This document shows, in pieces, positions 17,523 through 32,521 of a DNA stretch of 64,000 nucleotides. The stretch lies in contig PDSJ01000025.1 of assembly GCA_002748425.1 (NCBI GenBank), positions 22,605-86,604 of the forward strand, written 5' to 3'. Every line of letters begins with the position of its first letter. Position 1 is the stretch's first letter. The notes beneath the pieces were generated by a model that saw only the letters and a list, made by a program, of their open reading frames with translations, had not been told where the DNA came from and ran no database searches. The stretch is from a candidate division KSB3 bacterium (GTDB taxonomy: Bacteria; Moduliflexota; Moduliflexia; Moduliflexales; Moduliflexaceae). Position numbers and translations under genes: made by a program.

Positions 17523-18338
17523 TCACCCTTTATGATAGAACCAGTATTCAACATTTACCACTCCACCTTTGACAAATACCGCCCCAATCTGTAAATAATA
17601 GATCCCCGGAACTGACGGCTTGGGAATCTCAAAATGGATGCCCCGGTTTTCAGGATAATACCCGTATCCGAGCGCCTTACCGTCCAGAATAAAGGCTTTT
17701 GGAGAACCGTCGGCATCAAGCGTGGCGACACTGACATAGACTTCACTCAGCTCCTGTGTCGGCCAAATCACAAGTTGGTAGGCTGGCGACGAAGTCTCAG
17801 TCGACGGATTTTGGCTGATTCGCAAGGGGAGATAAACATCCTTCACCATACCGTTGCTGAGCTTATAGGATGCCCAGCCCAAGACTCCAAGATTATTCCG
17901 TGAGATCGAAAGCTGCCGAAGAATAGTGAGCGGCCACACATAGCGCGATTCGTCCGCCTGACGTTTCGTATCCATACGATAATAGAGTCCGGCCTGCAGC
18001 GACTGAGCCTGCAAAAAGACGTCTCTCGGCTGCGGAACACTCCAATCCACCATAAGCTTCTGCCCGGAATCAAGATCGAAGTCGTCAAAGCGTTCCACAA
18101 ACGACACCACTCGCAGAGTGCCGGTAAGCATCCGAAACCGGGAATTAGAGGCATACAGCCCTTCACAGGAATCACCTCTGAACTGATAGCTTAACGCATT
18201 CGGCGAACTGCCTGTCAACCGTGGATCGCAGGGACTACTTTCCCCCGCTGTGACTGATAAAGCTGTCATTTCGAAAAGAAGGTAAAGAAGAAACATCACA
18301 GTCCGGAGAACGCGAAAAATCGATTGATGATCATACAT
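17523..18338 (-). CDS. Hypothetical secreted protein
   Basis: N-terminal signal-like segment MFLLYLLFEMTALSVTAGESS. No recognisable domain. Confidence 0.4.
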   Translation of the reverse strand: MYDHQSIFRVLRTVMFLLYLLFEMTALSVTAGESSPCDPRLTGSSPNALSYQFRGDSCEGLYASNSRFRMLTGTLRVVSFVERFDDFDLDSGQKLMVDWSVPQPRDVFLQAQSLQAGLYYRMDTKRQADESRYVWPLTILRQLSISRNNLGVLGWASYKLSNGMVKDVYLPLRISQNPSTETSSPAYQLVIWPTQELSEVYVSVATLDADGSPKAFILDGKALGYGYYPENRGIHFEIPKPSVPGIYYLQIGAVFVKGGVVNVEYWFYHKG

Positions 18339-18505
18339 AATCTGTTACCTCATCAGCAAAAAGACGTATTTAAAGAAACTTTCTTTTTGTCGTAATTATA
18401 TCCACTATACAATAAATATATCTTACAGATAAGCGCAAGGAAAAAAACAAGATCGGCGTTCAGAGAGCTTTCGATCATTCAGCAAAGCCTGTAAGATACG
18501 TTTTC

Positions 18506-18535
18506 ATTTTTGTCAACTTTTGTCAACTTTTGCCA
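18506..18535. repeat. Triple 10-bp direct repeat (ttttgtcaac x2, then ttttgccaac) in the divergent intergenic region
   Basis: Seen directly in the sequence. On the minus strand it reads GTTGACAAAA x2, a TTGACA-like element, about 160 bp upstream of cheY. Confidence 0.6.
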
Positions 18536-18691
18536 ACAGGAGATATGACCTCGCAACGCGGAAAATTTCTGGAAAGAAAAATGGTGGATGTTATTATGTT
18601 GACAAATTTGTCCCGGTATGTAAACTTTTGAATTGTTTTCCTTAGGTTCATTAACGGCACAGCGAATCATCCAGCTCAGTGAGGAGAGCTT

Positions 18692-19057
18692 ATGCCAAAA
18701 TCGATCTTAATCGTCGACGATTCTGCGATCATTCGAAATTCATTAGGCTTTCTACTTGAGACGGAAGGCTTCGAGGTACAGACAGCCGCCAACGGAGTCG
18801 AAGCTCTTGAGAAAGTGCAAAGCGAACAATTTGACACGATTATTGCGGATATCAACATGCCGAAAATGCATGGCTATGATTTGATTAAAGAAATCCGAAA
18901 ACGCAGCAATTATCAAGATGTGCCGATTATCATCCTCACGACAGAAGAGGAAGCGGCCAACAAGAAAAAAGGCTTTGAAGCAGGGGCTAATCTCTTTCTG
19001 ATCAAACCAACTGAGCCGAAAAAAATGGTAAAGTACGTAAAAATGTTCCTCAATTAA
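18692..19057 (+). CDS. cheY: Single-domain chemotaxis response regulator
   Basis: 121 aa. ILIVDDS…DTIIADINMPKMHG…IIILT receiver motifs are present, and it is the first gene of the che operon. Confidence 0.9.
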   Translation: MPKSILIVDDSAIIRNSLGFLLETEGFEVQTAANGVEALEKVQSEQFDTIIADINMPKMHGYDLIKEIRKRSNYQDVPIIILTTEEEAANKKKGFEAGANLFLIKPTEPKKMVKYVKMFLN

Positions 19058-19064
19058 TACTGGC

Positions 19065-21191
19065 ATGGACAAGCACATTCATACACTCATACAGCAGTCT
19101 CAATCTCCTGACCCGGATATCCGCAGGCAGAGTCTTATCACCCTCGGAAAAAGCCGACCGTGCAGAGCGCGTCAAGAGGTCATCGAGACCTTAATCGCTT
19201 CGTTGGATGACAAACATCTGTCGGTCAGGGAAGCCGCTGAACAAGGTCTGCTTGCGTTGAAAGATCGCGATGTTGCGGAGGCACTCATCCAATGTCTATC
19301 GACGGACTCGCCGACCGCAACGCTCAACTATGCCGTCGAAATTCTGGGTCAAATCGGTAATGCTGCCATCGATCAAATCCTGCAGCTTCTGGAAAGCAGA
19401 AATCATAACATTCGGAAGTTCGGCTGCGACATTTTGGGACAATTGAAATATCGTGAGAGCGTCTACAAGTTGATCGAGCACTTGAACGATCCCCATGTCA
19501 ACGTTGCGATCGCGGCCGGTGAAGCGTTGGGAAACATCCGGCATCCTGAAGCGGTTCCCTATTTGATCCATGCGCTGCATCATCAGGATACCTGGATGCG
19601 CTGCATTGCCGCCGAAGCCCTTGGCAAGATCGGCGATCCACGCGCTGTCGATCCTTTTATTTCCATGCCTGCCGACGAAGATCCAATCGTCCTCTATACG
19701 GTCATCAAGGCGATGGGAAATTTTCGTGAACAACACGTGCTTCCCTATATTCTCTCTGCGTTGCAGAGTAGCCCGATGTTTGCGCCTTCTGCCGTCCAGG
19801 CGATCGAACATCTTGCGCGGCATCTCGGGGAGAATGTCTACAAAGAGGTTCGCCATACAGGCCTCGGCGAGCATTTTCTGCGTCTTCTCTCAAGCGACAA
19901 TCACGATGTTCTGCAAAGCGCCGTTATTCTTGCAGGGCAAACCCAGCTTCAAGATGCTGTTCATCCATTGGGACAACTTCTCAATCACAAGAGTGAAGAC
20001 ATCGTCAATGACGCAATCAATGCGCTTGCACATATCGGTGAAGCAGCACTTGAAGAAATCCACAGTCTTTTCGAACAAAACTTCGGGCAATGCAGTTCAG
20101 GGACGCTGGAACAAGAACCTGGAGAAACGCTTTTCCCTTCTGCAAACATCCCGATTATCCGAGTTCTCGGCCGGATCGCATCACCACAATCCATCGTGTT
20201 CCTGATTCGCGCGTTGGATGAAGGCTTTGCCGACGACATTCGGGTCGAAGCCGTTGCAGCTCTGGCGCAGACGTTAAGCCGCATCCCGGATTTAGCATGC
20301 CGTCTGGAGGAACGCGACGGCCTGTTCGGATCTGCGCTGAATACGCTCATCGCGGGACTGTCCGATTCAAGCGTTGCTCTCAGAATATGTACTGTAAACG
20401 CGCTGGGAGACATCGGCCTGCCTCAGGCGTATGCCCCACTGCTGGAGCTGCTGAAAGATCCTTCACTGACCATTTCCGATGCCGCATCACAGGCGCTGAC
20501 CAAAATTCGCGGCATCGACATTGAGGACAAAATCGAATCGGTCCGCTTTCTCATTAAAGGTGCTGACCACCACACATTGCCCGATACCGTGACAGCGTCA
20601 ATCCTGCGCACAATATATCGCATGGCAGGAGAAACTGAAGCCGATTTTCTGCTCTCGTACCTTGATCACCCATCAGACCTTGTTACCGTTGCCGTACTCG
20701 AAGCCTGTCTGAATTTTTCCTGCTCACTTCCAGCGTTCACCCGGCTTGTCGAGAACATTCGTCCGTTTCTGTCTGCCGACGATGTCCAGGTGAGAATCGC
20801 TGCCCTGCATGCTTTGCGACATTGGGGAATAGAAGAGCTGAACTGCGGGCGATCTGCCGAAGATATTACCGCACAGATTTTCGACGATATCATGGCGCGA
20901 CTTCACGATCCCCATCCCAGGGTGCAAGGTGAAGCGTGTCGGCAGATTTCTCTCCTGTGCCCTCATCTGCCCCTTGAACAGCCTCTTCGCAAGACACTGC
21001 TTACGGTCTTACTCTCGCTGATCCAGACTGAGGAAATCATGGTACAAATCGCTGCAGCCGAGGCTGTCGCCGTACTGCAACCGTATATCCCGGACACACA
21101 CCATGCTGTTCCAGTGCTGCAAAGGCTTTTGACACAGGCCGATGATATGCAACTGCGAAACGCTTTGCAAAAAACACTGGCTGTGTTATAA
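19065..21191 (+). CDS. HEAT/PBS-lyase repeat protein (che-cluster associated)
   Basis: Recurrent roughly 30-aa units, for example VRE(A)AAEALG.IGDP.AV..L, across 708 aa. Confidence 0.75.
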   Translation: MDKHIHTLIQQSQSPDPDIRRQSLITLGKSRPCRARQEVIETLIASLDDKHLSVREAAEQGLLALKDRDVAEALIQCLSTDSPTATLNYAVEILGQIGNAAIDQILQLLESRNHNIRKFGCDILGQLKYRESVYKLIEHLNDPHVNVAIAAGEALGNIRHPEAVPYLIHALHHQDTWMRCIAAEALGKIGDPRAVDPFISMPADEDPIVLYTVIKAMGNFREQHVLPYILSALQSSPMFAPSAVQAIEHLARHLGENVYKEVRHTGLGEHFLRLLSSDNHDVLQSAVILAGQTQLQDAVHPLGQLLNHKSEDIVNDAINALAHIGEAALEEIHSLFEQNFGQCSSGTLEQEPGETLFPSANIPIIRVLGRIASPQSIVFLIRALDEGFADDIRVEAVAALAQTLSRIPDLACRLEERDGLFGSALNTLIAGLSDSSVALRICTVNALGDIGLPQAYAPLLELLKDPSLTISDAASQALTKIRGIDIEDKIESVRFLIKGADHHTLPDTVTASILRTIYRMAGETEADFLLSYLDHPSDLVTVAVLEACLNFSCSLPAFTRLVENIRPFLSADDVQVRIAALHALRHWGIEELNCGRSAEDITAQIFDDIMARLHDPHPRVQGEACRQISLLCPHLPLEQPLRKTLLTVLLSLIQTEEIMVQIAAAEAVAVLQPYIPDTHHAVPVLQRLLTQADDMQLRNALQKTLAVL

Positions 21192-21197
21192 TACATT

Positions 21198-22028
21198 ATG
21201 ACGCTGCAACAACAACAGGATTTTGAAATCATCCGCGATCTCATCTGGGAGAAAAGCGGCATCTATTTCGAAAACACGAAACGCCAGTATTGTTTACGGC
21301 GCCTGCAAAACCGCATGATCCTGCGTGGTTGTCGGGGCTTGAAAGAGTATTATCATATTTTACAATATGAATCGTCCGGCGCTGAACTCTCAGAACTCCT
21401 TAACCTGCTGACAACGACTGAAACCTACTTTTTTCGTAATACTCCGCAGCTGCGTTCTTTTCAGGAAGAAATTCTCCCCGACATTCTCCGGCGAAAGCAG
21501 CAGAACGGCGAAACTCACCTGCATTTTTGGAGCGCCGGATGCTCTTCGGGCGAAGAAGCATATACGATTGCGATGCTTCTGCTGGAAACGCTTCCGGAAA
21601 ATCATGCGTGGAAGATCAGTATTGCTGGAACCGATATTAACACAGACGTCTTGATAAAAGCGAGGGAAGCAGTATATTCCGAACGCGCTCTGCGTGATAC
21701 GCCGGAGACCTATATCCACAAATACTTTCAGAAGGAAGGGGACCTCTACCGTCTCAGCGACCGTGTAAAAAATATGGTACGATTTCGCAAAGGCAATCTG
21801 ATCCAATCGGACGATGCCTCATTATTACAAAGCCTTGACTGTATTTTTTGTCGAAATGTGCTGATTTATTTCAATCTTGAATCATGCCGCCAAGTGATAG
21901 AAATTTTCTACAACAACCTGGCGCGTCACGGATATTTGCTCTTAGGCCACTCTGAATCGCTGTATCGGATCACAGCGATTTTTGCACTTAAAAAGTTACA
22001 GCATTCTTTGGTGTACTACAAAGAATAA
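21198..22028 (+). CDS. cheR: Chemotaxis protein methyltransferase
   Basis: TTETYFFRNTPQL… and HFWSAGCSSGEEAYTIAMLL are the SAM-binding CheR motifs. Confidence 0.9.
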   Translation: MTLQQQQDFEIIRDLIWEKSGIYFENTKRQYCLRRLQNRMILRGCRGLKEYYHILQYESSGAELSELLNLLTTTETYFFRNTPQLRSFQEEILPDILRRKQQNGETHLHFWSAGCSSGEEAYTIAMLLLETLPENHAWKISIAGTDINTDVLIKAREAVYSERALRDTPETYIHKYFQKEGDLYRLSDRVKNMVRFRKGNLIQSDDASLLQSLDCIFCRNVLIYFNLESCRQVIEIFYNNLARHGYLLLGHSESLYRITAIFALKKLQHSLVYYKE

Positions 22029-22104
22029 CGGCGTAAACGCTGTAGATGAACCGTCGGGAGAAGACCGTCTTGTACCAACGTTCACGACCGTCAGGTTTTT
22101 GGCT

Positions 22105-22623
22105 ATGCACACACATAATGATTATTTTTCGATGCATACGACAGAGACAAGCCACGATGCTTCTGAAGAAATCCAATTAGTGAGCTTTTTCCTTGGAGGA
22201 GATGAGTTTGGGGCGGATATCCTCATGGTCCAGGAAATCATCAGAATACAGCCAATCACGCGCGTCCCCAATGCACCTCATTTTGTCGAAGGCGTCATTA
22301 ATCTTCGTGGGAAGGTTATCCCAATCGTTGACTTGCGAAAGCGCTTAAACGTCAGCGGGACGGCAGAGGATCCACGTAAAGTTCGCGTCATCGTTGTCGA
22401 TGTCGAGGGCAAAATTACCGGTTTTATTGTCGACTCAGTCTCTCAGGTCCTTCGCATCCCCCAGAGCACTATCGACCCCGCTCCTTCCATCGTCAGCGTA
22501 GATATCGATTCAGAATATATTGTCGGGGTCAGCAAGTTGACTGATAGACTCTTAATACTGCTTAATTTTAACAAAATCTTATCAAAAAAGGAAACACGGG
22601 AACTACAGGAGGTTCAGCTCTAA
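22105..22623 (+). CDS. cheW: Chemotaxis coupling protein
   Basis: LVSFFLGGDEFGADILMVQEIIRI…INLRGKVIPIVDLRKRL is the CheW domain. The ORF is open from 21982, and the ATG at 22105 or 22132 gives a normal CheW length. Confidence 0.85.
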   Translation: MHTHNDYFSMHTTETSHDASEEIQLVSFFLGGDEFGADILMVQEIIRIQPITRVPNAPHFVEGVINLRGKVIPIVDLRKRLNVSGTAEDPRKVRVIVVDVEGKITGFIVDSVSQVLRIPQSTIDPAPSIVSVDIDSEYIVGVSKLTDRLLILLNFNKILSKKETRELQEVQL

Positions 22624-22687
22624 CATTCCGGGCCGAACGTACATGGTGCAGCCTCAGAATTAAAAAACTGAACAATTTCCCATAATT

Positions 22688-23929
22688 ATGACATATTGGT
22701 TGAACATAAAAAATTTTACAGTGCGCAGCTTGCTTGTAGTCGGCAGTATTATTCTTCTGGTAAGCGGCCTCCAGCTGTTCTACGTCCAACATGTCTTGCG
22801 CGAAACGGAATTCCTGTTCAGCTCCCTCCCGATGAAGCTTTATATCGGGCTGTGCCTGATCGACACGCTTTTACTGCTCGGCTTGTGGGTCGGTATCCTG
22901 AAATTGTATCATGTTTCAATCACCCGCCCATCCAAAGAGCTTGCCCCTGTTATCCGTGACATGCAGACAGATCATCTTGACCTGGTATCATATCTCAAGG
23001 ACACCGGCTGTTCTGACATTCATCTCCTGGCACAGGCCTCCGAGCACATGCTGCAACGGGTCAAGAGTCTCATTTCCCAAGTTCATGAAATCGGACAGCA
23101 TATCCTCAAGACCTCGAGAAGTATCTTCGCCACATCCAAGAAACAGTCACAGCACTTTACATATCAAGCCGGGTCTTCCGGCGACTTAACTTCAGCCATA
23201 CAAGAATTGATCCTCACGACAGAGCTTATCAGTGATGGAGTGAGCGCTGTGGTCAAACTTGCCGGGCAGACTCTGCAATTTACAGAGCAAGGACAGCAGT
23301 CGGTCCAGGCCGTTGTCAAAAGCATGGAAGATATCCATCATTCATCGCAAGTCAGCTCGAATAAAATCATGGCGCTGAGTAAGCAATCCGGTCACATCAA
23401 CGAAGTGGTCAAAACTATCGATCGTATGATCGAAGATACAAAGTTGATCGCCTTTAATGCGACCATAGAAGCTGCGCGAGCAAAGGACCAGGGCAGAGGA
23501 TTCAGCGTGGTATCGCTTGAAATCAAACGTCTGGCCGAAGGCGTCTTTGAATCCACTGAAGCGATAAAGGAGCTGATTCAGGACATTCTGGAAACGTCAC
23601 ATGCCCTTGTGATGGCGCATGAGGAGGAGATGAAAACCGTCCATCGCGGCACCTTGCTTGTCGAAAAGGCCGGAACGTCTTTAGAACACATTTTTGAGAT
23701 GCTTCGCTCCACAACTGATTCCGCTCAACACATTGTCACGGCCGCTCAACAGCAGCAAAGCGCAAATACGATGGTGTTGCAATCTGTCGAACAGGCCAGA
23801 CAATCAATGAACCGCTTTTCCCTGGAATCACAGCAGCTCGCTCGCGCAAGTGCGGAACTGAATATTCTGGCTGAGGGACTGGGGCAAATCCTCTCAGGAT
23901 ATACTCCTCAGAACAGCCCGGGAGAATGA
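22688..23929 (+). CDS. Methyl-accepting chemotaxis protein (short periplasmic loop)
   Basis: Two N-terminal TM helices and a highly conserved signalling hairpin (LIAFNATIEAARAKDQGRGFSVVSLEIKRLAE). Confidence 0.8.
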   Translation: MTYWLNIKNFTVRSLLVVGSIILLVSGLQLFYVQHVLRETEFLFSSLPMKLYIGLCLIDTLLLLGLWVGILKLYHVSITRPSKELAPVIRDMQTDHLDLVSYLKDTGCSDIHLLAQASEHMLQRVKSLISQVHEIGQHILKTSRSIFATSKKQSQHFTYQAGSSGDLTSAIQELILTTELISDGVSAVVKLAGQTLQFTEQGQQSVQAVVKSMEDIHHSSQVSSNKIMALSKQSGHINEVVKTIDRMIEDTKLIAFNATIEAARAKDQGRGFSVVSLEIKRLAEGVFESTEAIKELIQDILETSHALVMAHEEEMKTVHRGTLLVEKAGTSLEHIFEMLRSTTDSAQHIVTAAQQQQSANTMVLQSVEQARQSMNRFSLESQQLARASAELNILAEGLGQILSGYTPQNSPGE

Positions 23930-23936
23930 AAGGAGC

Positions 23937-26153
23937 ATGTCGGAAGAAGAGCTTATTCGTGAATTTATCGCTGAAGCCGAGGAACATTTATCCACCCTGG
24001 AACCAAATCTTCTCCGTCTGGAACGCGCCCCGAACAATCAAGAAATCATCAATGACATCTTTGTCGCTGCCCACAGCATTAAGGGCACGGCTTCCTATGT
24101 CGGTTTAACCCATATCAGCAATTTTACACACAGCCTGGAACACCTGCTGGATCGCCTTCGTAAAGGCAGTCTCAGCAGCTCACCAGCCCTGATCGACAAC
24201 CTGCTGCAAGGGGTCGATATGTTGAAAGAATTCGTACGCTGCGCCGCACTCGGGCAGCCGGCTCCCGATTCCCAGGAAATAACTCAGCGTCTTTTGCAGT
24301 GGGGAGCTGAGAGCTCTGTCGTTTACGAATATGAGCAGTCTGAAACGCCTGAACCTGACGCTCAGGATGATGATTTCGCAGCGCAGCTTGAACACCTGGA
24401 GTCTGAAGATGCAGAAATTTTTGTAGACATCGCCGGACAACAATTCGAGATTATTCGACAGGCTCTGGAAAAAATTCGATATGAGCTGCTCTCAGCACCA
24501 TCTGAAAGTCCTCCCACTGCACTTACAAGGCTTATCAAAGCTTTTCGAACGATGAAATCATCAGCGCCGCTCCTCAATATCGACGACATACAGCAGCTGT
24601 TCGAACGGCACGATCATCGCTTCAGCAAGCTGGAAGCTCCATCTCACATCCTTACGGAAGAAGACCTGCACGACATCACTGGCATGATTCAGGAGCAGGA
24701 AGCGACTGTTCGGCGTATTTCACACCACAGCTCCGGGACAGCGTCAACTTTCCCTCAGTCATCGACAAGGACGTCGCAAAACTTCATGCCAAGTCTTGAG
24801 AGCAGACAGCGCCAGACTCTCCGGGTAGACGCCAGACGGGTCGACCAGCTTCTTAATCTGGCTGGTGAACTCACGATCAATCGCGCTCGTCTCGAACAGC
24901 TCAGTACACAGATCAAAGACCTGTATGAGGCCCTGCGATCAGGCAAGTCGTCACTCGGTCCGACGTCCGCGTTTGATCCCAGGCTGACACTCCGCACGGT
25001 CAAAAAATTGAAAGAGTTCTCCAGCGAAATCACGCAGGATATCGGACGAATCAGCAATCAAATGCAAGAAAGCACGATGCGTATCCGCATGGTGCCGATC
25101 GGCCAGGTACTGAATCGCTTTCCAAGAATGGTACGCGATCTTTCCAGACAGGCCCAAAAAGAGATTGCTGTCAGGATTCATGGCGCTGAGACAGAGCTGG
25201 ACAAAAGTGTGATCGAACTGATTGGCGAGCCATTGATTCACGTGATCCGCAACGCGATCGATCATGGCATCGAAAGGCCTGAAGAGCGTGAGCGTCAGGG
25301 AAAAACGCGACAAGGTCTCATCGAGATCTCTGCATATTATGAGGGAAATCAGGTACTCGTCGAAATTGTAGATGACGGTCGAGGGCTTGACAAAAAACTC
25401 ATTACGGAAAAAGCCGTCGAGCAGCAGCTCATCAGCCAGCAGGAGGCCAACAGCTTGCATGACAAAGAGCTCAGCTCTCTGATTTTTCACAGCGGTTTCA
25501 GCACGGTTGAGACGGTCAGTAGTCTTTCCGGCCGGGGTGTCGGCCTCCACGTTGTCAAACGCTATCTGGAAAAAATCAACGGGACCGTCGAAGTGGAGTC
25601 TTTCTGGGCCAAAGGCTGCCGCTTTATACTTCGACTTCCTCTGACTCTGGCAATTATTCCGGCTTTAATGGTTCAAGTAAGCACAGAAATTTTTGCCGTT
25701 CCTCTTATTTCAGTTGAAGAGGCGCTCCGCATCCTTCCGAGTGAAATTCACACGGTTGAGTCTCACAGAGTCATTGATCTGCGGGGGAAAATGCTGCCTG
25801 TTTTCGATCTGGCCGAATTCTTTGGAGCAACACTGTTTGAGGATTATGAACGCCTGTATGCGACACACGCTGAATGTGACCTGCTAGAGTACGAGGAAGA
25901 AAAAACGCTCTACGCGCTTATTCTCAATGACGGATTCTGTACGATTGCTGTGCTCGTTGATCGCTTTCTGGGCGAGAACAATATTGTCGTTAAACCCTTG
26001 AATGACAGCCTGCTGAATGTTAAAGGGATCTCCGGAGCATCAATCAGAGGCGACGGCCGGATTTCACTGGTCATCGATCCCGTATCGCTCTGCAGCCTGG
26101 CCACCAGAGATCTGCAACACCGTCATCGTGCCCGTCCTAAGACCGACCAATGA
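23937..26153 (+). CDS. cheA: Chemotaxis histidine kinase
   Basis: Hpt (AHSIKGTASYVGL), a dimerisation/HATPase region (HGIE…DDGRGLD, GRGVGL) and a C-terminal CheW-like domain. Confidence 0.9.
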   Translation: MSEEELIREFIAEAEEHLSTLEPNLLRLERAPNNQEIINDIFVAAHSIKGTASYVGLTHISNFTHSLEHLLDRLRKGSLSSSPALIDNLLQGVDMLKEFVRCAALGQPAPDSQEITQRLLQWGAESSVVYEYEQSETPEPDAQDDDFAAQLEHLESEDAEIFVDIAGQQFEIIRQALEKIRYELLSAPSESPPTALTRLIKAFRTMKSSAPLLNIDDIQQLFERHDHRFSKLEAPSHILTEEDLHDITGMIQEQEATVRRISHHSSGTASTFPQSSTRTSQNFMPSLESRQRQTLRVDARRVDQLLNLAGELTINRARLEQLSTQIKDLYEALRSGKSSLGPTSAFDPRLTLRTVKKLKEFSSEITQDIGRISNQMQESTMRIRMVPIGQVLNRFPRMVRDLSRQAQKEIAVRIHGAETELDKSVIELIGEPLIHVIRNAIDHGIERPEERERQGKTRQGLIEISAYYEGNQVLVEIVDDGRGLDKKLITEKAVEQQLISQQEANSLHDKELSSLIFHSGFSTVETVSSLSGRGVGLHVVKRYLEKINGTVEVESFWAKGCRFILRLPLTLAIIPALMVQVSTEIFAVPLISVEEALRILPSEIHTVESHRVIDLRGKMLPVFDLAEFFGATLFEDYERLYATHAECDLLEYEEEKTLYALILNDGFCTIAVLVDRFLGENNIVVKPLNDSLLNVKGISGASIRGDGRISLVIDPVSLCSLATRDLQHRHRARPKTDQ

Positions 26154-26193: not shown

Positions 26194-26874
26194 CTATTTG
26201 ATATTCCCCCAGATTCGCACCTGAATCAGAGGAAGAGACTCCAGTGTTGTCTTAATATTCAACCAGCCCGACAGTAATCCTTTGGGCGTATCTGGCAGCA
26301 GTTCGGCCTGCAACAGCACTTCACCATCCGGAGGAATCGTCATTGAGGAGAGTGACACATTGATAGATGGCAGCGAAGAATCGATTCCGAGCAGCTCCAC
26401 CGAATTTCCCGAATAATTCTTCAGTATGACGGAAGCATATTTCGCGTTTTCTCCACGAAAGCGGAGGACCCTGTTTGGCACAACATCGACATCCACCAGC
26501 ACATTCGTATGAACCGTCAATGAAAACGCAGCATGTTGCGGATCGTTGCTTTCTACCTTTATGACCTGTCGGGTACTGCGCCTCCGGGCTCTGGTTCGGA
26601 TGGTGACAGCGACTCTGATTTCACCACCAGGAGGGATTTCGTTGCCGTCCGGCAACTTCACGTTACAACCTCAGCCGCCTTTAGCCTTGAGGATACTCAA
26701 CATGCTGTCACCGTGATTTTTAAAGACAAAATAGTGCGTCAGGGTCTGATTTGGCTCTACATCGCCAAAATCAAAATGAAGACCATCGACGACTTCGAGC
26801 CGGGGACTCGCCTCCACGATCTCTAAACTCCCAAGAAGGAGAAAGAGGGCAACGAAAATACTTGATCTTTTCAT
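26194..26874 (-). CDS. DUF1573 family protein interrupted by an in-frame TGA at the conserved Cys (candidate selenoprotein or pseudogene)
   Basis: ORFs 26671-26874 and 26194-26661 are in the same frame. HFDFGDV…FVFKNHGDSMLSILKAKGG-TGA-GCNVKLPDGNEIPPGGEIRVAV aligns to the DUF1573 core …SCGCT…, with the TGA (26671-26673) at the first Cys. Confidence 0.5.
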
Positions 26875-27158
26875 AGAATTATAGTACCTCTGGACTATGC
26901 ACGGCGTCTCCCGGGCGCGAACACAAATTCAGGAAACGAAATTTCAGAACATTCACGAAGAGTGAACAATGGGCGCATCATCAGCCCTACTAATATTTGG
27001 CATGGTCAGAAAAAGTCAATAAATTGTCGAAAAAAACCCTGGGACGGATAAAAAAGTCGCTATAGAATCCTTAGGAACCAGCCTACGAGCAGTTATTACG
27101 ATCAACAGCGACATGCAAAATCACAAGATCGTGACAGCCAGCCCAACAGGAGCTTTCA

Positions 27159-28331
27159 GTGAACATGGTCACTCGAAAAACTATCGAATATTTGAGTCTT
27201 TGTTGTCTTCTCATCATACTCGGCCTCATTCTTGTCAACGCGTTCAGGAAGGGTGAATACATTCCTCTTTCCGTCACACGCTCCACAGCGCCATTTCCAG
27301 ACAAGACATCAGAACGTCTCAGTCACAGCCTCCAGAAAATCTTCGAGCAGTCCGCTCTGATACACGCTTATCGCAAAACGTCTGCAACGCCTCCTGACAA
27401 CGGAGAAGAGCATCCCGGCAAGCGGCAGCGGCAGGAATACCACGCTCGTTTAGAGCGAAAAGCAGAGCTTCCACGTGTTATCGAGCGTATTTCAACGGAA
27501 ATCGAATCACATGGCGGTAAGATCTTTCAAACCTACGTCGATTCCCACAAACAGCAGGCTGTGATCGTCATCGGTGTGGAGTCTGCCATTACCCACCAAC
27601 TTGTCTTGACCTGGAAGCCACCTGTTACAACGCCGACACCCCCAACGACCCCATCTGAGCCTCCAGCGAGATTTCGGGCTGCGATCATCATCGATGATTT
27701 GGGAAGTAATCTCTCCTTTATCAACAGTCTGCTGGACTTAAACGCAGATTTGACCTACTCCATTCTCCCCCATCTTCAGAAGTCAACGGAAATTGCCACC
27801 ATGCTCCATGAGCGTCAAAAGGAAATTTTGCTGCATCTCCCGATGGAGCCCCAGGACTATCCAGCCATCTCACCTGGAAAAGGGGCGCTGTTCAGCCGGA
27901 TGACCCGCGATCAAATTCAACGCACAATTGAATGGGATTTGCAAAGCGTGCCGTTTGCTTCAGGTGTCAATAATCATATGGGGTCGAAGCTCACATCAAA
28001 CTGGGGCGCAATGAAAGCCGTATTAGAGTATCTCCACGCGCACAAGCTTTTTTTTGTGGACAGCCGGACTTCCGGATCGACTATCGCCTACACACTTGCA
28101 CAGCAGATCGGTTTGCAAAGTGCGCAACGCCAGGTGTTTCTCGACGTTGTTCCTGAAACGCAGGCCGTGAAAGCACAGCTGCAAAAACTTGCTTTACTCG
28201 CAGAACAAGGTAAGCCTGCTATTGCCATCGGTCATCCGAAATCCGCAACCCTGAAGGCCTTGCAAAACATGCTACCGGAATTTAGAGCTCGTAATATCCA
28301 GATCGTAAGAATCTCAGAGTTTACTCATTAA
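27159..28331 (+). CDS. Divergent polysaccharide deacetylase family protein (YibQ-like)
   Basis: N-terminal TM segment. AIIIDDLGSN…LPHL…NNHMGSKLTS matches the PF04748-type pattern. Confidence 0.65.
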   Translation: MNMVTRKTIEYLSLCCLLIILGLILVNAFRKGEYIPLSVTRSTAPFPDKTSERLSHSLQKIFEQSALIHAYRKTSATPPDNGEEHPGKRQRQEYHARLERKAELPRVIERISTEIESHGGKIFQTYVDSHKQQAVIVIGVESAITHQLVLTWKPPVTTPTPPTTPSEPPARFRAAIIIDDLGSNLSFINSLLDLNADLTYSILPHLQKSTEIATMLHERQKEILLHLPMEPQDYPAISPGKGALFSRMTRDQIQRTIEWDLQSVPFASGVNNHMGSKLTSNWGAMKAVLEYLHAHKLFFVDSRTSGSTIAYTLAQQIGLQSAQRQVFLDVVPETQAVKAQLQKLALLAEQGKPAIAIGHPKSATLKALQNMLPEFRARNIQIVRISEFTH

Positions 28332-28383
28332 GCTGCATGCAATAATGGAATCATACTGCACATAACGCCTGCCGAGACTCCAC

Positions 28384-28749
28384 TTAGCAGAACGCATTCT
28401 GGATATGGTCGAGCGTGTGAGTCCCATTTGACAGGTTGAGCGTAATGCCGATGACATCGAATCGGAATTGCGTATTCACCAGATTACGCTGGGCAATGTA
28501 AAACAGTGCTGTACGTTTCACGTGCTGCTGTTTACGGGGCGTGACTGAGTTATAGGCCGGCCCATAGGCCGCGGAGCTTTTCGTCCTCACTTCCAGAAAT
28601 ACAACCATATTCCGATCTCCGGCGATCAAATCAATCTCCCCCAGCTTACAACGAAAATTCCGTTCAAGCACAGTATAGCCCTGCCGCAGAATATACTCAT
28701 AGGCCAACTGTTCCCCTTTTTTGCCGATCTTCACGCGTTCTTGCGACAT
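28384..28749 (-). CDS. yraN: YraN/UPF0102 family endonuclease-like protein
   Basis: GEQLAYEYILRQGYTVLERNFRCKLGEIDLIAGDRNMVVFLEVRTKS is typical of UPF0102. The ORF is open from 28782, and the later ATG was chosen. Confidence 0.8.
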   Translation of the reverse strand: MSQERVKIGKKGEQLAYEYILRQGYTVLERNFRCKLGEIDLIAGDRNMVVFLEVRTKSSAAYGPAYNSVTPRKQQHVKRTALFYIAQRNLVNTQFRFDVIGITLNLSNGTHTLDHIQNAFC

Positions 28750-29125
28750 ATACACCTCTCTCCATTCAGAAATTCTGAACACCCTTATTCCGCTGTTCCC
28801 TCATGAAAACTGCTAAGTTCCCAAAACGTCAAGAATTCTTCAGATCCATGACATCGTGAATGAAATACCCGTATAAGAAAATCTCTTACAACCGATTTTT
28901 GCTCTTTGCGTCTGAATACTCATAGCATTTCCTCCAGTTGCCATCAGCAGCTGATCCAAAAAAAATCGCTGATTGTTCGCTGCCAAAGAGGTGATAAGAA
29001 TTTTCACTTGACTTCTTCGGCGGCTATTATGATGGTATATAAACCTTTGTTAATTTATGCTGTCATAGCGTGTAACAGACACCATTTTCGGAACGTCCGA
29101 AAGAGCCTGTCTCCAGGGAGGTACC

Positions 29126-30634
29126 ATGATGACTGTAGGAAAAATGCTTGAGGAATCGGCCCAACGCTTTCCCCGTAAATGCGCCATTAAATTTCAAAAG
29201 CGCAAGATTTCATATCGCGAGCTCCATGAATTAAGCCACAGGGCTGCTCACGGCCTTCTGGCCCTGGGACTCTCGAAAGGCGATCGGGTCGGGATTTTCA
29301 GCGATAATTGCCCGGAGTACATTATCAGCTATTTTGCCGCCTTAGCGTTCGGCGGCGTTGCTGTCCCCATCAACAGCTTCCTGACTGGGAATGAAGTCAA
29401 ATACATTGTTGATAACTGCGGCATTAAAGTGCTCGTCACCTCAAAAAGATTTCTCCGCACGCTCCAGCCTGTTCTGCAACAGATGGAGTCACTCAAACGT
29501 GTCATTGTGATCGACGGCCCGGACCAGAGCGAACACATGGCCTTTGCAACATTACTGCAATCCAGCAGAACAGAGCCTCCTTGCCACGACCTTTCCTCCG
29601 ACGATCTGGCGGTCTTTATCTACACATCCGGTACGACCGGCCATCCCAAAGGCGCAATGCTTTCGCACGGCAACTTAGTGAGCAATACCGAAGACTCACT
29701 TGAGGTCTTTAATGTGGTTCCAAAAGATAAATTCCTCTTATTCTTACCGATGTTTCACTCGTTCACCTTTACGACCTGCGTTTTGCTGCCGATTTTGTCA
29801 GGATCAACAATTGTCCTGATCGGTTCGGTGAAATCGATGGATGCGATCAGGAAAGCAATTATTTTCGATCGCGTAACAGTTTTTGTTGGCGTGCCTGCCG
29901 TATACAATGTATTGGCGAACAAGGACTTACCCAAAATCCTACGTTACATCAATGCGATTCGGGCGTTCGTGTCCGGATCGGCACCTCTGCCGGGTCCGGT
30001 GATCGGCAAAATCGAAAAAAAATTCAGAAGCGCCTTGTGCGAGGGATACGGCCTGTCAGAAGCCTCTCCGGTCGTGGCCGTCAATCCCTTATTCGGCACT
30101 CGGAAGCCAGGTACTGTCGGTTTGCCTTTGCGACGCGTTCAGGTGAAAATCGTCGATGCCAACCACAACGAACTACCAGTCGGAGAAGTCGGTGAACTGG
30201 CTGTAAAAGGGCCAAACGTCATGCAAGGCTATTATAATATGCCTGAAGAAACTGCAAAGACCATTGTCGATGGCTGGCTGCTGACCGGGGATGTTGCAAA
30301 GCTGGATGAAGAGGGCTATATTTCCATTGTAGACCGCAAAAAAGAAATGCTGCTGGTACGCGGAGTCAACGTCTATCCCCGCGAGATCGAAGCTGTACTG
30401 TATCAGCATCCGAACATCGTCGAATGTGCTGTCATTGGGGTGCCTGACGAGACAAAAGGTGAGGTCCCGAAAGCGTTTATCGTTGTTCGTGACGGAGAAG
30501 CGCTTTCAGAAAAAGATGTACGTGCCCACTGCAAGAAACATCTGGCAGGATACAAACTCCCCAGGTTTATTGAATTTAGACCGTCGCTTCCGAAGAACGC
30601 CACTCAGAAAATTATGAAGCGTAATCTTCGCTGA
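29126..30634 (+). CDS. Long-chain fatty-acid-CoA ligase (AMP-dependent synthetase)
   Basis: YTSGTTGHPKGAML is the AMP-binding motif I, with GYGLSE and the rest of the adenylate-forming domain pattern. Confidence 0.85.
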   Translation: MMTVGKMLEESAQRFPRKCAIKFQKRKISYRELHELSHRAAHGLLALGLSKGDRVGIFSDNCPEYIISYFAALAFGGVAVPINSFLTGNEVKYIVDNCGIKVLVTSKRFLRTLQPVLQQMESLKRVIVIDGPDQSEHMAFATLLQSSRTEPPCHDLSSDDLAVFIYTSGTTGHPKGAMLSHGNLVSNTEDSLEVFNVVPKDKFLLFLPMFHSFTFTTCVLLPILSGSTIVLIGSVKSMDAIRKAIIFDRVTVFVGVPAVYNVLANKDLPKILRYINAIRAFVSGSAPLPGPVIGKIEKKFRSALCEGYGLSEASPVVAVNPLFGTRKPGTVGLPLRRVQVKIVDANHNELPVGEVGELAVKGPNVMQGYYNMPEETAKTIVDGWLLTGDVAKLDEEGYISIVDRKKEMLLVRGVNVYPREIEAVLYQHPNIVECAVIGVPDETKGEVPKAFIVVRDGEALSEKDVRAHCKKHLAGYKLPRFIEFRPSLPKNATQKIMKRNLR

Positions 30635-30647
30635 ACAGACGGGTGGA

Positions 30648-32225
30648 ATGATGGATCTTAGAAATCCCAAGATGACTGTTGCAACACTGATCGAGCAGGC
30701 AGTGGCGGAACATGGACGTCGAAAATGTCTGACCTACGAGAAAACCACATACAGCTACAGACAGCTCGGTTGGAAAATTGAGCAGACGGCAAAGGGTCTT
30801 CATCAACTCGGTGTTGAAAAAGGTCATCGCATCGGCTTATTTCTTGCGAACTGTCCAGAGTATATTTTTGCGTATTTCGGGAATCTCAAACTCGGAGGGG
30901 TGAATGTTCCGATCAATACCTTTCTTTCGAGCAGTGAAGTGCAATTTATTCTGGACGACTGTGAAATCTCGGTCGTCATTACCGATAATACTCTGTATAA
31001 AGTTCTTGAGCCGATCCTTCCAGAGCTGCGCCATCTGCAACATGTGATCATTGTCGGCGATGACGTTCCGGGAACAATCGCATTCAACAGCTTCGAACAA
31101 TCCTCGTTTGAGCCTGCCGACTGGATTCCGCCATCCCATGAAGATGTGGCGGTTATTCACTATACCTCTGGCACGACAGGCAGACCCAAAGGGGCGATGT
31201 TAAGCCATAAAAACTTGCTGGCAGCCATCGATTCGAATACCGACATCATTAAAATTTCTCACCGCGACAAAATTATCGTCTTTCTCCCGATGTTCCACGT
31301 ATTTACCTTTGTCGTCTGCATTCTTGCAACATTCAGCCGGGGAACACAGATCATCCTCCTTGGCTCAATTCGTCCGTTTAAACGAATCGGCAAGGCGATC
31401 ATGCGCTATCGCATCAGCGTCCTTGTTGGGGTTCCCCAGGTCTTTAACGCATTGGCCAACCTCGATGTGCCTTGGTTTTTCCGCTTTATCAACCCCATAC
31501 GAGTCTGCGTATCCGGCGGAGCACCATTATCGGTCGAGGTACTTGAAAAATTCAAACAAAAATTTGGTATTCCTCTCCTGGAAGGTTATGGCTTGTCCGA
31601 AACCACTGGAGGGATTTGCGTCAATCCGCTGAAAGGGCCACAGAAACCTCTCTCCATTGGCCCCCCAATCAAAGGCGTCGAAGTCAAAATCCTCGACGAA
31701 GACGATATCGAACTCGGAGTCGATAATGTTGGTGAACTGCTGGTCAAGGCCGACAACGTCATGCTCGGTTATTATAATCAGCCCGAAGAAACCGCACAGG
31801 CCTTGCAGGATGGCTGGTTACGCACTGGAGACATGGCAAAACGCGACAAGGATGGCTATCTGTACATTGTTGATCGCAAAAAGGATATGCTGATTGTGCG
31901 CGGGATGAATGTTTACCCGAGAGAAGTCGAAGAAATTCTCAATACCCATCCGAAAGTCGAGGAATGCGTTGTGATCGGCGTACCGGACAAGCAACGCGGC
32001 GAAGTACCGAAAGCGATCATCACCCTGAAAGAAAACACCCCGGCCACGGAAAAAGAGTTCCGAAAATTCTGCCACGAAAAAATCGCAATGTATAAAAACC
32101 CCAAATATTTTGAATTTCGGAAGACACTCCCCAAAACAGCTACGGGAAAAGTTCGCAAAGACATTCTCAAGCGGGAAGAATTCGAAAAACAGCAGCAGGC
32201 GACAGAAGAAAAAATTTTTATCTAG
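30648..32225 (+). CDS. Long-chain fatty-acid-CoA ligase paralogue
   Basis: YTSGTTGRPKGAMLSHKNL and GYGLSETTG. It is collinear with the upstream paralogue. Confidence 0.85.
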   Translation: MMDLRNPKMTVATLIEQAVAEHGRRKCLTYEKTTYSYRQLGWKIEQTAKGLHQLGVEKGHRIGLFLANCPEYIFAYFGNLKLGGVNVPINTFLSSSEVQFILDDCEISVVITDNTLYKVLEPILPELRHLQHVIIVGDDVPGTIAFNSFEQSSFEPADWIPPSHEDVAVIHYTSGTTGRPKGAMLSHKNLLAAIDSNTDIIKISHRDKIIVFLPMFHVFTFVVCILATFSRGTQIILLGSIRPFKRIGKAIMRYRISVLVGVPQVFNALANLDVPWFFRFINPIRVCVSGGAPLSVEVLEKFKQKFGIPLLEGYGLSETTGGICVNPLKGPQKPLSIGPPIKGVEVKILDEDDIELGVDNVGELLVKADNVMLGYYNQPEETAQALQDGWLRTGDMAKRDKDGYLYIVDRKKDMLIVRGMNVYPREVEEILNTHPKVEECVVIGVPDKQRGEVPKAIITLKENTPATEKEFRKFCHEKIAMYKNPKYFEFRKTLPKTATGKVRKDILKREEFEKQQQATEEKIFI

Positions 32226-32233
32226 CTGGCAAA

Positions 32234-32305
32234 AGCCGGCGATAGGACTTGAACCTACGACCTGCTGATTACGAATCAGCTGCTCTACCACTGAGCTACG
32301 CCGGC
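32234..32305 (-). tRNA. tRNA-Thr (anticodon CGU)
   Basis: The reverse complement folds as a cloverleaf: GCCGGCG acceptor stem, GCUC/GAGC D-stem, anticodon loop UUCGUAA, T-loop GGUUCAAGUCC. Confidence 0.85.
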
Positions 32306-32365
32306 ACGTGCAGCCGTTTCACGCTCGTCAGTGATACGACTGTGAGGAATGCGGAAGATGAGAAA

Positions 32366-32438
<73 letters not shown>

Positions 32439-32521
32439 ATATCTGTTGTGTTCTGATGGTCGTTATCATATTACGCAGCGCATTTTTGTCAAGAGTTTTT
32501 TACGTTTCCCGAAAATTTCCA

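Follow-up and report, generated by a model that had tools for sequence, protein, structure and literature searches.

The locus described here raises the question of whether an in-frame UGA codon, located where DUF1573 proteins carry the first Cys of their conserved motif, specifies selenocysteine (Sec), or whether it terminates, or has disrupted, a gene. The window, i.e. the whole stretch of DNA that was analysed, comprises 64,000 nt of contig PDSJ01000025.1 from a candidate division KSB3 (Moduliflexota) bacterium. On its minus strand, a frame opened by the ATG at 26874 contains an in-frame TGA at 26673..26671 and then remains open to the TAG at 26196..26194. The translation across the site is ...SILKAKGG*GCNVKLPDGNEIPPGGEIRVAV..., and both the position of the UGA at the first Cys of the DUF1573 motif and the translation given in the first-pass annotation, in which this UGA had been proposed as a candidate Sec codon, were reproduced.

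Reading through the UGA gives a 226-residue protein that is predicted to be exported (Table 1). When Cys was substituted for the stop, residues 33-124 matched the Pfam family PF07610 (DUF1573) with an E-value of 7e-15 and a score of 55.3 bits (model positions 7-97 of 98), which exceeds the gathering threshold of 26.1 bits, and a related Ig-like family, PF22544, also matched the read-through protein (E 3.9e-9). The PF07610 match runs across the UGA, in line with the earlier statement that the DUF1573 consensus is kept if this codon is read as Sec or Cys. Cys70 matches the second Cys of the 'CGC' motif found in the Cys forms of DUF1573, and no family match was obtained for the C-terminal domain (residues about 125-226). 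Direct reading of the N-terminal sequence revealed a basic n-region, a hydrophobic core, and a small-x-small site, and the orthologue N-termini have a like layout, ending in AQA, VQA, or LLA before A/V-P. We infer from these features that the N-terminal 22 residues are a signal peptide and that the protein is presumably destined for the periplasm or the cell surface.

Table 1. Coordinates of the features of the predicted selenoprotein gene and of a small ORF found beside it in relatives (window positions, except where a locus number is given)
Feature	Position	Strand	Remarks
Predicted complete selenoprotein gene	26194..26874	-	226 codons including one UGA (Sec68); TAG stop at 26194-26196
Predicted signal peptide, MKRSSIFVALFLLLGSLEIVEA	26809..26874	-	Putative cleavage after residue 22; read by eye from the sequence
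In-frame UGA, proposed Sec codon	26671..26673	-	Residue 68; position 1 of the U-G-C motif
Cys70 codon (TGT), partner Cys of the U-G-C motif	26665..26667	-	TGC/TGT in 17/17 orthologues
SECIS-like hairpin	26641..26656	-	6-bp stem GUUGCC/GGCAAC, GGAC loop
DUF1573 / OS_HP2 domain	26503..26778	-	Residues 33-124; Ig-like (ASH/PapD-like) beta-sandwich across the UGA
Second, C-terminal beta-sandwich domain	26197..26502	-	Residues about 125-226; from the model of orthologue P0002; conserved in all orthologues
Fragment annotated as a gene, 155-aa 'hypothetical protein CSA57_11075'	26194..26661	-	Start GTG four codons past the UGA
80-83-aa ORF	L023 9354-9599; L024 2278-2520; L025 2344-2586	-	
80-83-aa ORF	L027 749-1000; L028 851-1102; L030 851-1093	-	

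The 155-residue ORF 3' of the TGA shows 99% identity to CSA57_11075 of a candidate division KSB3 bacterium (P0001). Among 20 homologues found in a collection of 5.8 billion proteins, 19 are fragments of 151-180 aa that start a few codons after the TGA position. Only one entry, P0002, a Logan call, is 'full-length'; it shows Trp where its DNA (L001) reads TGA, and it also ran 21 residues beyond the true TGA stop of L001; because both TGAs were rendered as Trp, the caller evidently used genetic code 4. In L001 and L023-L031, gene callers consistently split the gene into an N-terminal ORF of 48-70 aa and a C-terminal ORF of 151-180 aa.

Related loci were fetched from GTDB genomes, JGI metagenomes, and contigs encoding the database fragments. 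TGA is present at the same codon in all 19 orthologous loci, i.e. in 17 of the 17 distinct orthologues, which share the context K/R-G/A-G-TGA-G-C and 45-70% amino-acid identity with the window protein. The orthologues were derived from two published KSB3 genomes, several MAGs, and metagenomes. L004 is from bacterium UASB14 (Candidatus Moduliflexus flocculans) and L005 from UASB270, which was placed in a different class of the phylum in the KSB3 genome paper (PMC4312070); the other sources include two uncultured Moduliflexus MAGs and a 10.1-Mb ENA contig (L023, ERZ21831104:ctg97553c), whose orthologue is 70% identical. A signal peptide and beta-strands are conserved upstream of the TGA in the orthologues, and the remainder of the protein is encoded downstream. 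In addition, an independent Logan assembly of run SRR6011892 (L031) contains all 681 nt of the gene without a difference. The first-pass annotation had asked whether orthologues carry Cys or UGA at this position; the KSB3 orthologues invariably keep the TGA, and Cys occurs in distant homologues only. Every member of the two-domain KSB3 clade seen here thus appears to use Sec.

Both halves of the gene are under purifying selection. For the ten orthologue pairs that gave computable values, dN/dS ranged from 0.10 to 0.29 upstream of the TGA and from 0.10 to 0.28 downstream of it, at dS of about 0.4-2.4; on either side, variation was greatest at third codon positions. Of the 44 ORFs of at least 200 codons in the window, 18 end in TGA, which makes it the stop used most often, and the orthologues L001, L012, L013, L027, and L029 also terminate with it, so that the code has not been reassigned genome-wide. 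Scans of the window for split ORFs and for C-x-x-U/U-x-C contexts detected no plausible TGA-interrupted gene besides this one.

At the position of the UGA, six of the seven distinct distant homologues have Cys-Gly-Cys, mostly within S-C-G-C-T, and one has Cys-Gly-Ser. The codon is TGC or TGT in the Cys-form DUF1573 genes (Deltaproteobacteria, Bacteroidetes, and Nitrospiraceae MAGs), and the TGA of KSB3 and the Cys codons of the distant forms appear to constitute a classic Sec/Cys pair. Cys-type genes such as L006-L008, L015, and L018 have the domain, the ANE(I/V)PPGGE and NDP motifs, and the CGC position in common with the query, but they contain TGC/TGT rather than TGA, have no conserved hairpin in register, and share 29-39% identity with the query. 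Among the Cys forms that encode the same ANEIPPGGE peptide, no hairpin was found at the corresponding place. TGA occurs at the first Cys in two further DUF1573 genes, both distant and from metagenomes, L017 (TGA at 1219-1221) and L019 (TGA at 2023-2025), with the motifs T-U-G-C-T and S-U-G-C-T and identities of 25 and 35%, respectively. Each has its own, different 6-bp hairpin at a similar offset, suggesting that Sec forms exist in several DUF1573 lineages.

The window gene contains a perfect 6-bp hairpin, GUUGCC-GGAC-GGCAAC, at 26656..26641 (minus strand). Its sequence and coordinates were as described in the first-pass annotation, but the spacing of 12 nt given there was wrong; the stem begins 14 nt past the TGA, and hence the apical loop begins 20 nt past it. 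The evidence for the hairpin within one sequence is only moderate. The fold of the 60 nt after the UGA was non-significant in the single sequence (z = -1.09), and a Watson-Crick stem of at least 6 bp occurs in the SECIS distance range after 3.5% of the TGA trinucleotides of the window, or after 1.3% when at least four G-C pairs are required. The hairpin motif itself occurs only once in the window.

To compare the stem, the 48 nt that start at the UGA were aligned without gaps across the 17 orthologues; columns 18-23 pair with columns 28-33. Standard pairs were found in all 102 cells (102/102; 17/17 orthologues), and pairing fell to 17-66% when the partner columns were slid. One pair shows a compensatory change, from C-G to G-C, in L013 and L029, along with Leu-to-Ala and Gly-to-Ala replacements, and three stem pairs show one-sided changes compatible with G-U wobble. 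The covariation concerns one pair in two related sequences and probably represents a single evolutionary event. Synonymous diversity at the stem codons is 0.00-0.01 at +5, +6, +9, and +10 and 0.34 at +7, the gene mean being 0.53. Leu in the stem is always encoded by UUG (one of six codons), Gly by GGC, and Asn/Asp by C-ending codons, and the 3' arm, GGC AAC, has a synonymous diversity of 0.00-0.01. Low synonymous variation reaches past the stem, from codon -1, an invariant GGC in the 17 orthologues, to codons +11 to +15 (window 26629-26676, minus strand), where GAA-AUC-CCU-CCC-GGU is nearly invariant; the functional RNA element, or a context requirement of the UGA, may therefore exceed the hairpin. 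Conservation of the hairpin, on which the first-pass annotation had made its proposal depend, was thus found: its position and pairing are kept in 17/17 orthologues, one pair is compensatory, and synonymous change is close to zero. A lower helix in the MFE fold, pairing GAGG (including the GA of the UGA) with CCUC, was also considered and was rejected, as 82% of its cells pair, there is no covariation, and a Pro codon explains the pattern.

The combination of TGA and hairpin across the orthologues is clearly non-random. Because pairing is maintained and synonymous change is suppressed, because the Cys forms have no such hairpin, and because the distant Sec forms have hairpins of their own, the stem is under RNA-level selection and is tied to the TGA, as would be predicted for a SECIS element. 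In the consensus used by bSECISearch, the apical loop lies 16-37 nt after the UGA, is small, and has a G within the first two positions. The window hairpin resembles bacterial SECIS elements of the E. coli fdhF type in that it lies in the coding sequence directly 3' of the UGA and has a loop, GGAC, starting from 20 nt. It differs from them in its short stem (6-7 bp), in having no bulged U, and in the loop G, which is missing in 5/17 orthologues (loop position 1 is G in 12/17 and U in 5/17); furthermore, the comparison gives no support here for a lower helix including the UGA, and there is no covering Rfam family. A search of the window against Rfam at gathering thresholds yielded two tRNAs only and no SECIS or tRNA-Sec family. 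In form, position, and size, the hairpin is similar to a bacterial SECIS example shown in PMC13326102.

No tRNA-Sec was found by ARAGORN in the window or the 19 related loci, and tblastn searches with E. coli SelA, SelB, and SelD as queries gave no match to selA, selB, or selD in the window or the fetched loci. A tRNA-seC(tca) gene is, however, listed for both UASB14 and UASB270 (PMC4312070, Table S6), the genomes that contain L004 and L005, and PMC1273633 describes selC and selB together as signatures of the Sec-decoding trait. These tRNA genes, which belong to the genomes of relatives, provide good indirect support for Sec decoding. A literature search found no paper that deals with Moduliflexus or KSB3 together with selenocysteine.

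The first-pass annotation had named a TGC-to-TGA pseudogene or a sequencing error as the alternative, taken here as a former Cys gene with a nonsense mutation or with a fault of assembly or sequencing. Such an origin would account for the truncated hypothetical protein in the database and for the presence of Cys at this position in most DUF1573 proteins. However, both halves of the gene, the frame, and the TGA have been kept over a distance at which synonymous change is near-saturated, with dN/dS of 0.10-0.29 on both sides and no other frame disruption, and a nonsense pseudogene is thereby excluded. A sequencing error is likewise excluded because the second assembly (L031) is identical and because the TGA recurs in unrelated samples, being present in all 17 distinct orthologues. 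Conserved TGA and purifying selection on both sides thus effectively refute this alternative, whose remaining probability we consider to be negligible. It is also highly unlikely that two genes are present, i.e. that translation stops at the UGA and that the downstream ORF of 152-157 aa is started independently or by re-initiation, with GAGG from UGA-GG serving as the Shine-Dalgarno sequence and either the invariant UUG or the GUG of the window as the start codon. Gene callers do predict the split consistently, the GUG of the window has GAGG 7 nt before it, and the invariance of UUG at codon +6 could mean a start codon rather than a stem base. Yet the GUG of the window is unconserved (codon +4 is GCC, ACC, AUU, GUC, or others in the orthologues), the UUG is poorly spaced at 13 nt from GAGG, and a start codon would explain neither the conservation of the 3' arm nor the compensatory pair. 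Moreover, a single DUF1573 beta-sandwich (residues 33-124) extends across the junction, so that neither part would fold by itself, the piece 3' of the UGA would lack a signal peptide, and the Cys forms have their Cys at this point inside an uninterrupted ORF.

Programmed read-through of the UGA by an ordinary near-cognate tRNA (Trp or Cys), with no selenium and with the hairpin acting as a generic stimulator, is more difficult to separate by sequence analysis, which does not distinguish the inserted amino acid, and it would fit with the finding of no Sec machinery in the window or the fetched loci. We nevertheless judge it to be very unlikely. The UGA aligns with a conserved Cys, as is characteristic of Sec/Cys exchange, and the family already has its place among the catalogued selenoproteins; both published KSB3 genomes with orthologues contain tRNA-Sec genes, and the hairpin agrees in position and size with bacterial SECIS elements, e.g. 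that in PMC13326102. The reading that we favour, and consider very probable from the comparative evidence, is that SelB and a SECIS element direct the insertion of Sec at the TGA at 26673..26671, within a single 226-codon gene. The original proposal of a candidate Sec codon is therefore upheld by the conserved TGA, the purifying selection on both sides, and the conserved hairpin.

According to the established bacterial pathway, the hairpin, 14-29 nt downstream, would not yet have been unfolded when the ribosome arrives at the UGA. Sec would be delivered at the UGA in competition with release factor 2, and translation would then proceed to the TAG at 26194. The product would consist of a signal peptide and two Ig-like (ASH/PapD-like) beta-sandwiches, the first of which would be the DUF1573 domain with Sec-Gly-Cys in a turn, corresponding to the Cys-Gly-Cys of most DUF1573 proteins.

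DUF1573 has been linked to selenium in previous studies. OS_HP2 was described as a new selenoprotein family from the Olavius algarvensis symbiont metagenome (Zhang and Gladyshev 2007, PMC1976440) and was equated with pfam07610, having a UxC motif, in the GOS study, in which 2 Sec and 354 Cys sequences were reported (PMC2398784); 'DUF1573 domain-containing protein, UGC' is also listed in two reviews (PMC9312934 and PMC13188914). U68-G69-C70 of the window protein, located inside the PF07610 match, is the motif given for OS_HP2 in selenoproteome reviews. The best NCBIfam match was NF041425, 'OS_HP2 family (seleno)protein' (68.4 bits, E 5e-19, model positions 5-97 of 98), but the curated cut-off of 100 bits was not reached by the window protein, and scores of 76-95 bits were obtained for the KSB3 orthologues and for the further Sec and Cys forms that were tested. 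The window protein is, as judged from these scores, a homologue outside the trusted range of the NF041425 model. Scores under the curated cut-off are the probable reason why annotation pipelines truncate the gene. Like OS_HP2 of the O. algarvensis delta-1 and delta-4 symbionts, the window protein has the PF07610 domain, Sec as the first residue of U-G-C, and a stem-loop after the UGA. Unlike OS_HP2, the window clade is from KSB3/Moduliflexota rather than Deltaproteobacteria and has a second C-terminal beta-sandwich and a clade-specific hairpin, OS_HP2 having been compared by profile and description. In all likelihood, the gene belongs to the DUF1573/OS_HP2 selenoprotein family and falls in a two-domain clade specific to KSB3. 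It presents no novelty in kind, since DUF1573 with U-x-C is already known as the family OS_HP2.

The gene order is conserved across KSB3 and consists of UPF0102, Polysacc_deac_2, the selenoprotein gene, and the convergent cheA with a chemotaxis cluster. In the window, the chemotaxis cluster, convergent with the selenoprotein gene, occupies 18300-26153 on the plus strand and contains genes for cheA, an MCP, cheW, cheR, a HEAT-repeat protein, and a response regulator (CheY). The other side (27159-32225, plus strand) contains a divergent YibQ-like Polysacc_deac_2 polysaccharide deacetylase gene, UPF0102, and two AMP-binding ligase genes. This synteny was also seen in L023, L024, L025, L027, and L028. 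In relatives, a conserved ORF of 80-83 aa without a Pfam match lies between the deacetylase and selenoprotein genes (Table 1); in the source organism (L031), this ORF has not been called, and the corresponding gap in the window spans only 26875-27158. A pair of tRNA genes, tRNA-Thr(CGU) and tRNA-Phe(GAA), is located at 32234-32439 (minus strand), about 5.5 kb from the selenoprotein gene, and the same pair is present in the locus of the closest relative (L023 3895-4105, plus strand).

An AlphaFold model was built for the orthologue P0002 (mean pLDDT 81). In this model, residues 1-24, corresponding to the signal region, are disordered and are followed by two beta-sandwich domains, of which the C-terminal one has a pLDDT of 85-98, and the U-G-C motif is located in a turn between strands 62-68 and 73-76. 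Foldseek identified ASH/PapD-like Ig folds, with the best matches at E 2e-11 to 6e-10. The matches include HYDIN and other ciliary central-apparatus proteins, the SPD-2 domain of CEP192, pilus chaperones, and PDB 2qsv, a Porphyromonas gingivalis protein without an assigned function. The tandem beta-sandwich fold is shared with the ASH/PapD-like Ig domains and 2qsv, and PF22544 also matches the window protein, but identities are only 10-17% and the two-domain superpositions gave low TM-scores of 0.35-0.40. These matches to generic Ig/ASH folds provided no functional lead, and a sequence search of the PDB yielded no match. By analogy with other Sec/Cys pairs, the U-G-C site would most likely be either a redox-active selenenylsulfide or a soft-metal-binding site. 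With Sec in every member seen and with a chemotaxis cluster and a YibQ-like deacetylase gene as conserved neighbours across KSB3, the protein might also be imagined as a selenium-dependent extracytoplasmic component for redox or metal sensing that is tied to the chemosensory and gliding behaviour of the filaments, a proposal that we regard as speculative and unlikely; if true, such a chemosensory-linked role would give the DUF1573 domain its first assigned function.

Overall, the gene is a mis-annotated new member of a selenoprotein family that has been known since 2007, and as such it will not surprise a specialist. At least 17 orthologues are split likewise or read with the wrong genetic code, and the curated NCBIfam model NF041425 misses the whole KSB3 clade. 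As interpreted here, the gene documents Sec decoding in the candidate phylum KSB3/Moduliflexota. Because all the members seen retain Sec, they form a clean clade in which to ask why the C-G-C motif of DUF1573 benefits from selenium. The finding leaves the understanding of Sec recoding unchanged and offers a useful handle on the function of DUF1573.
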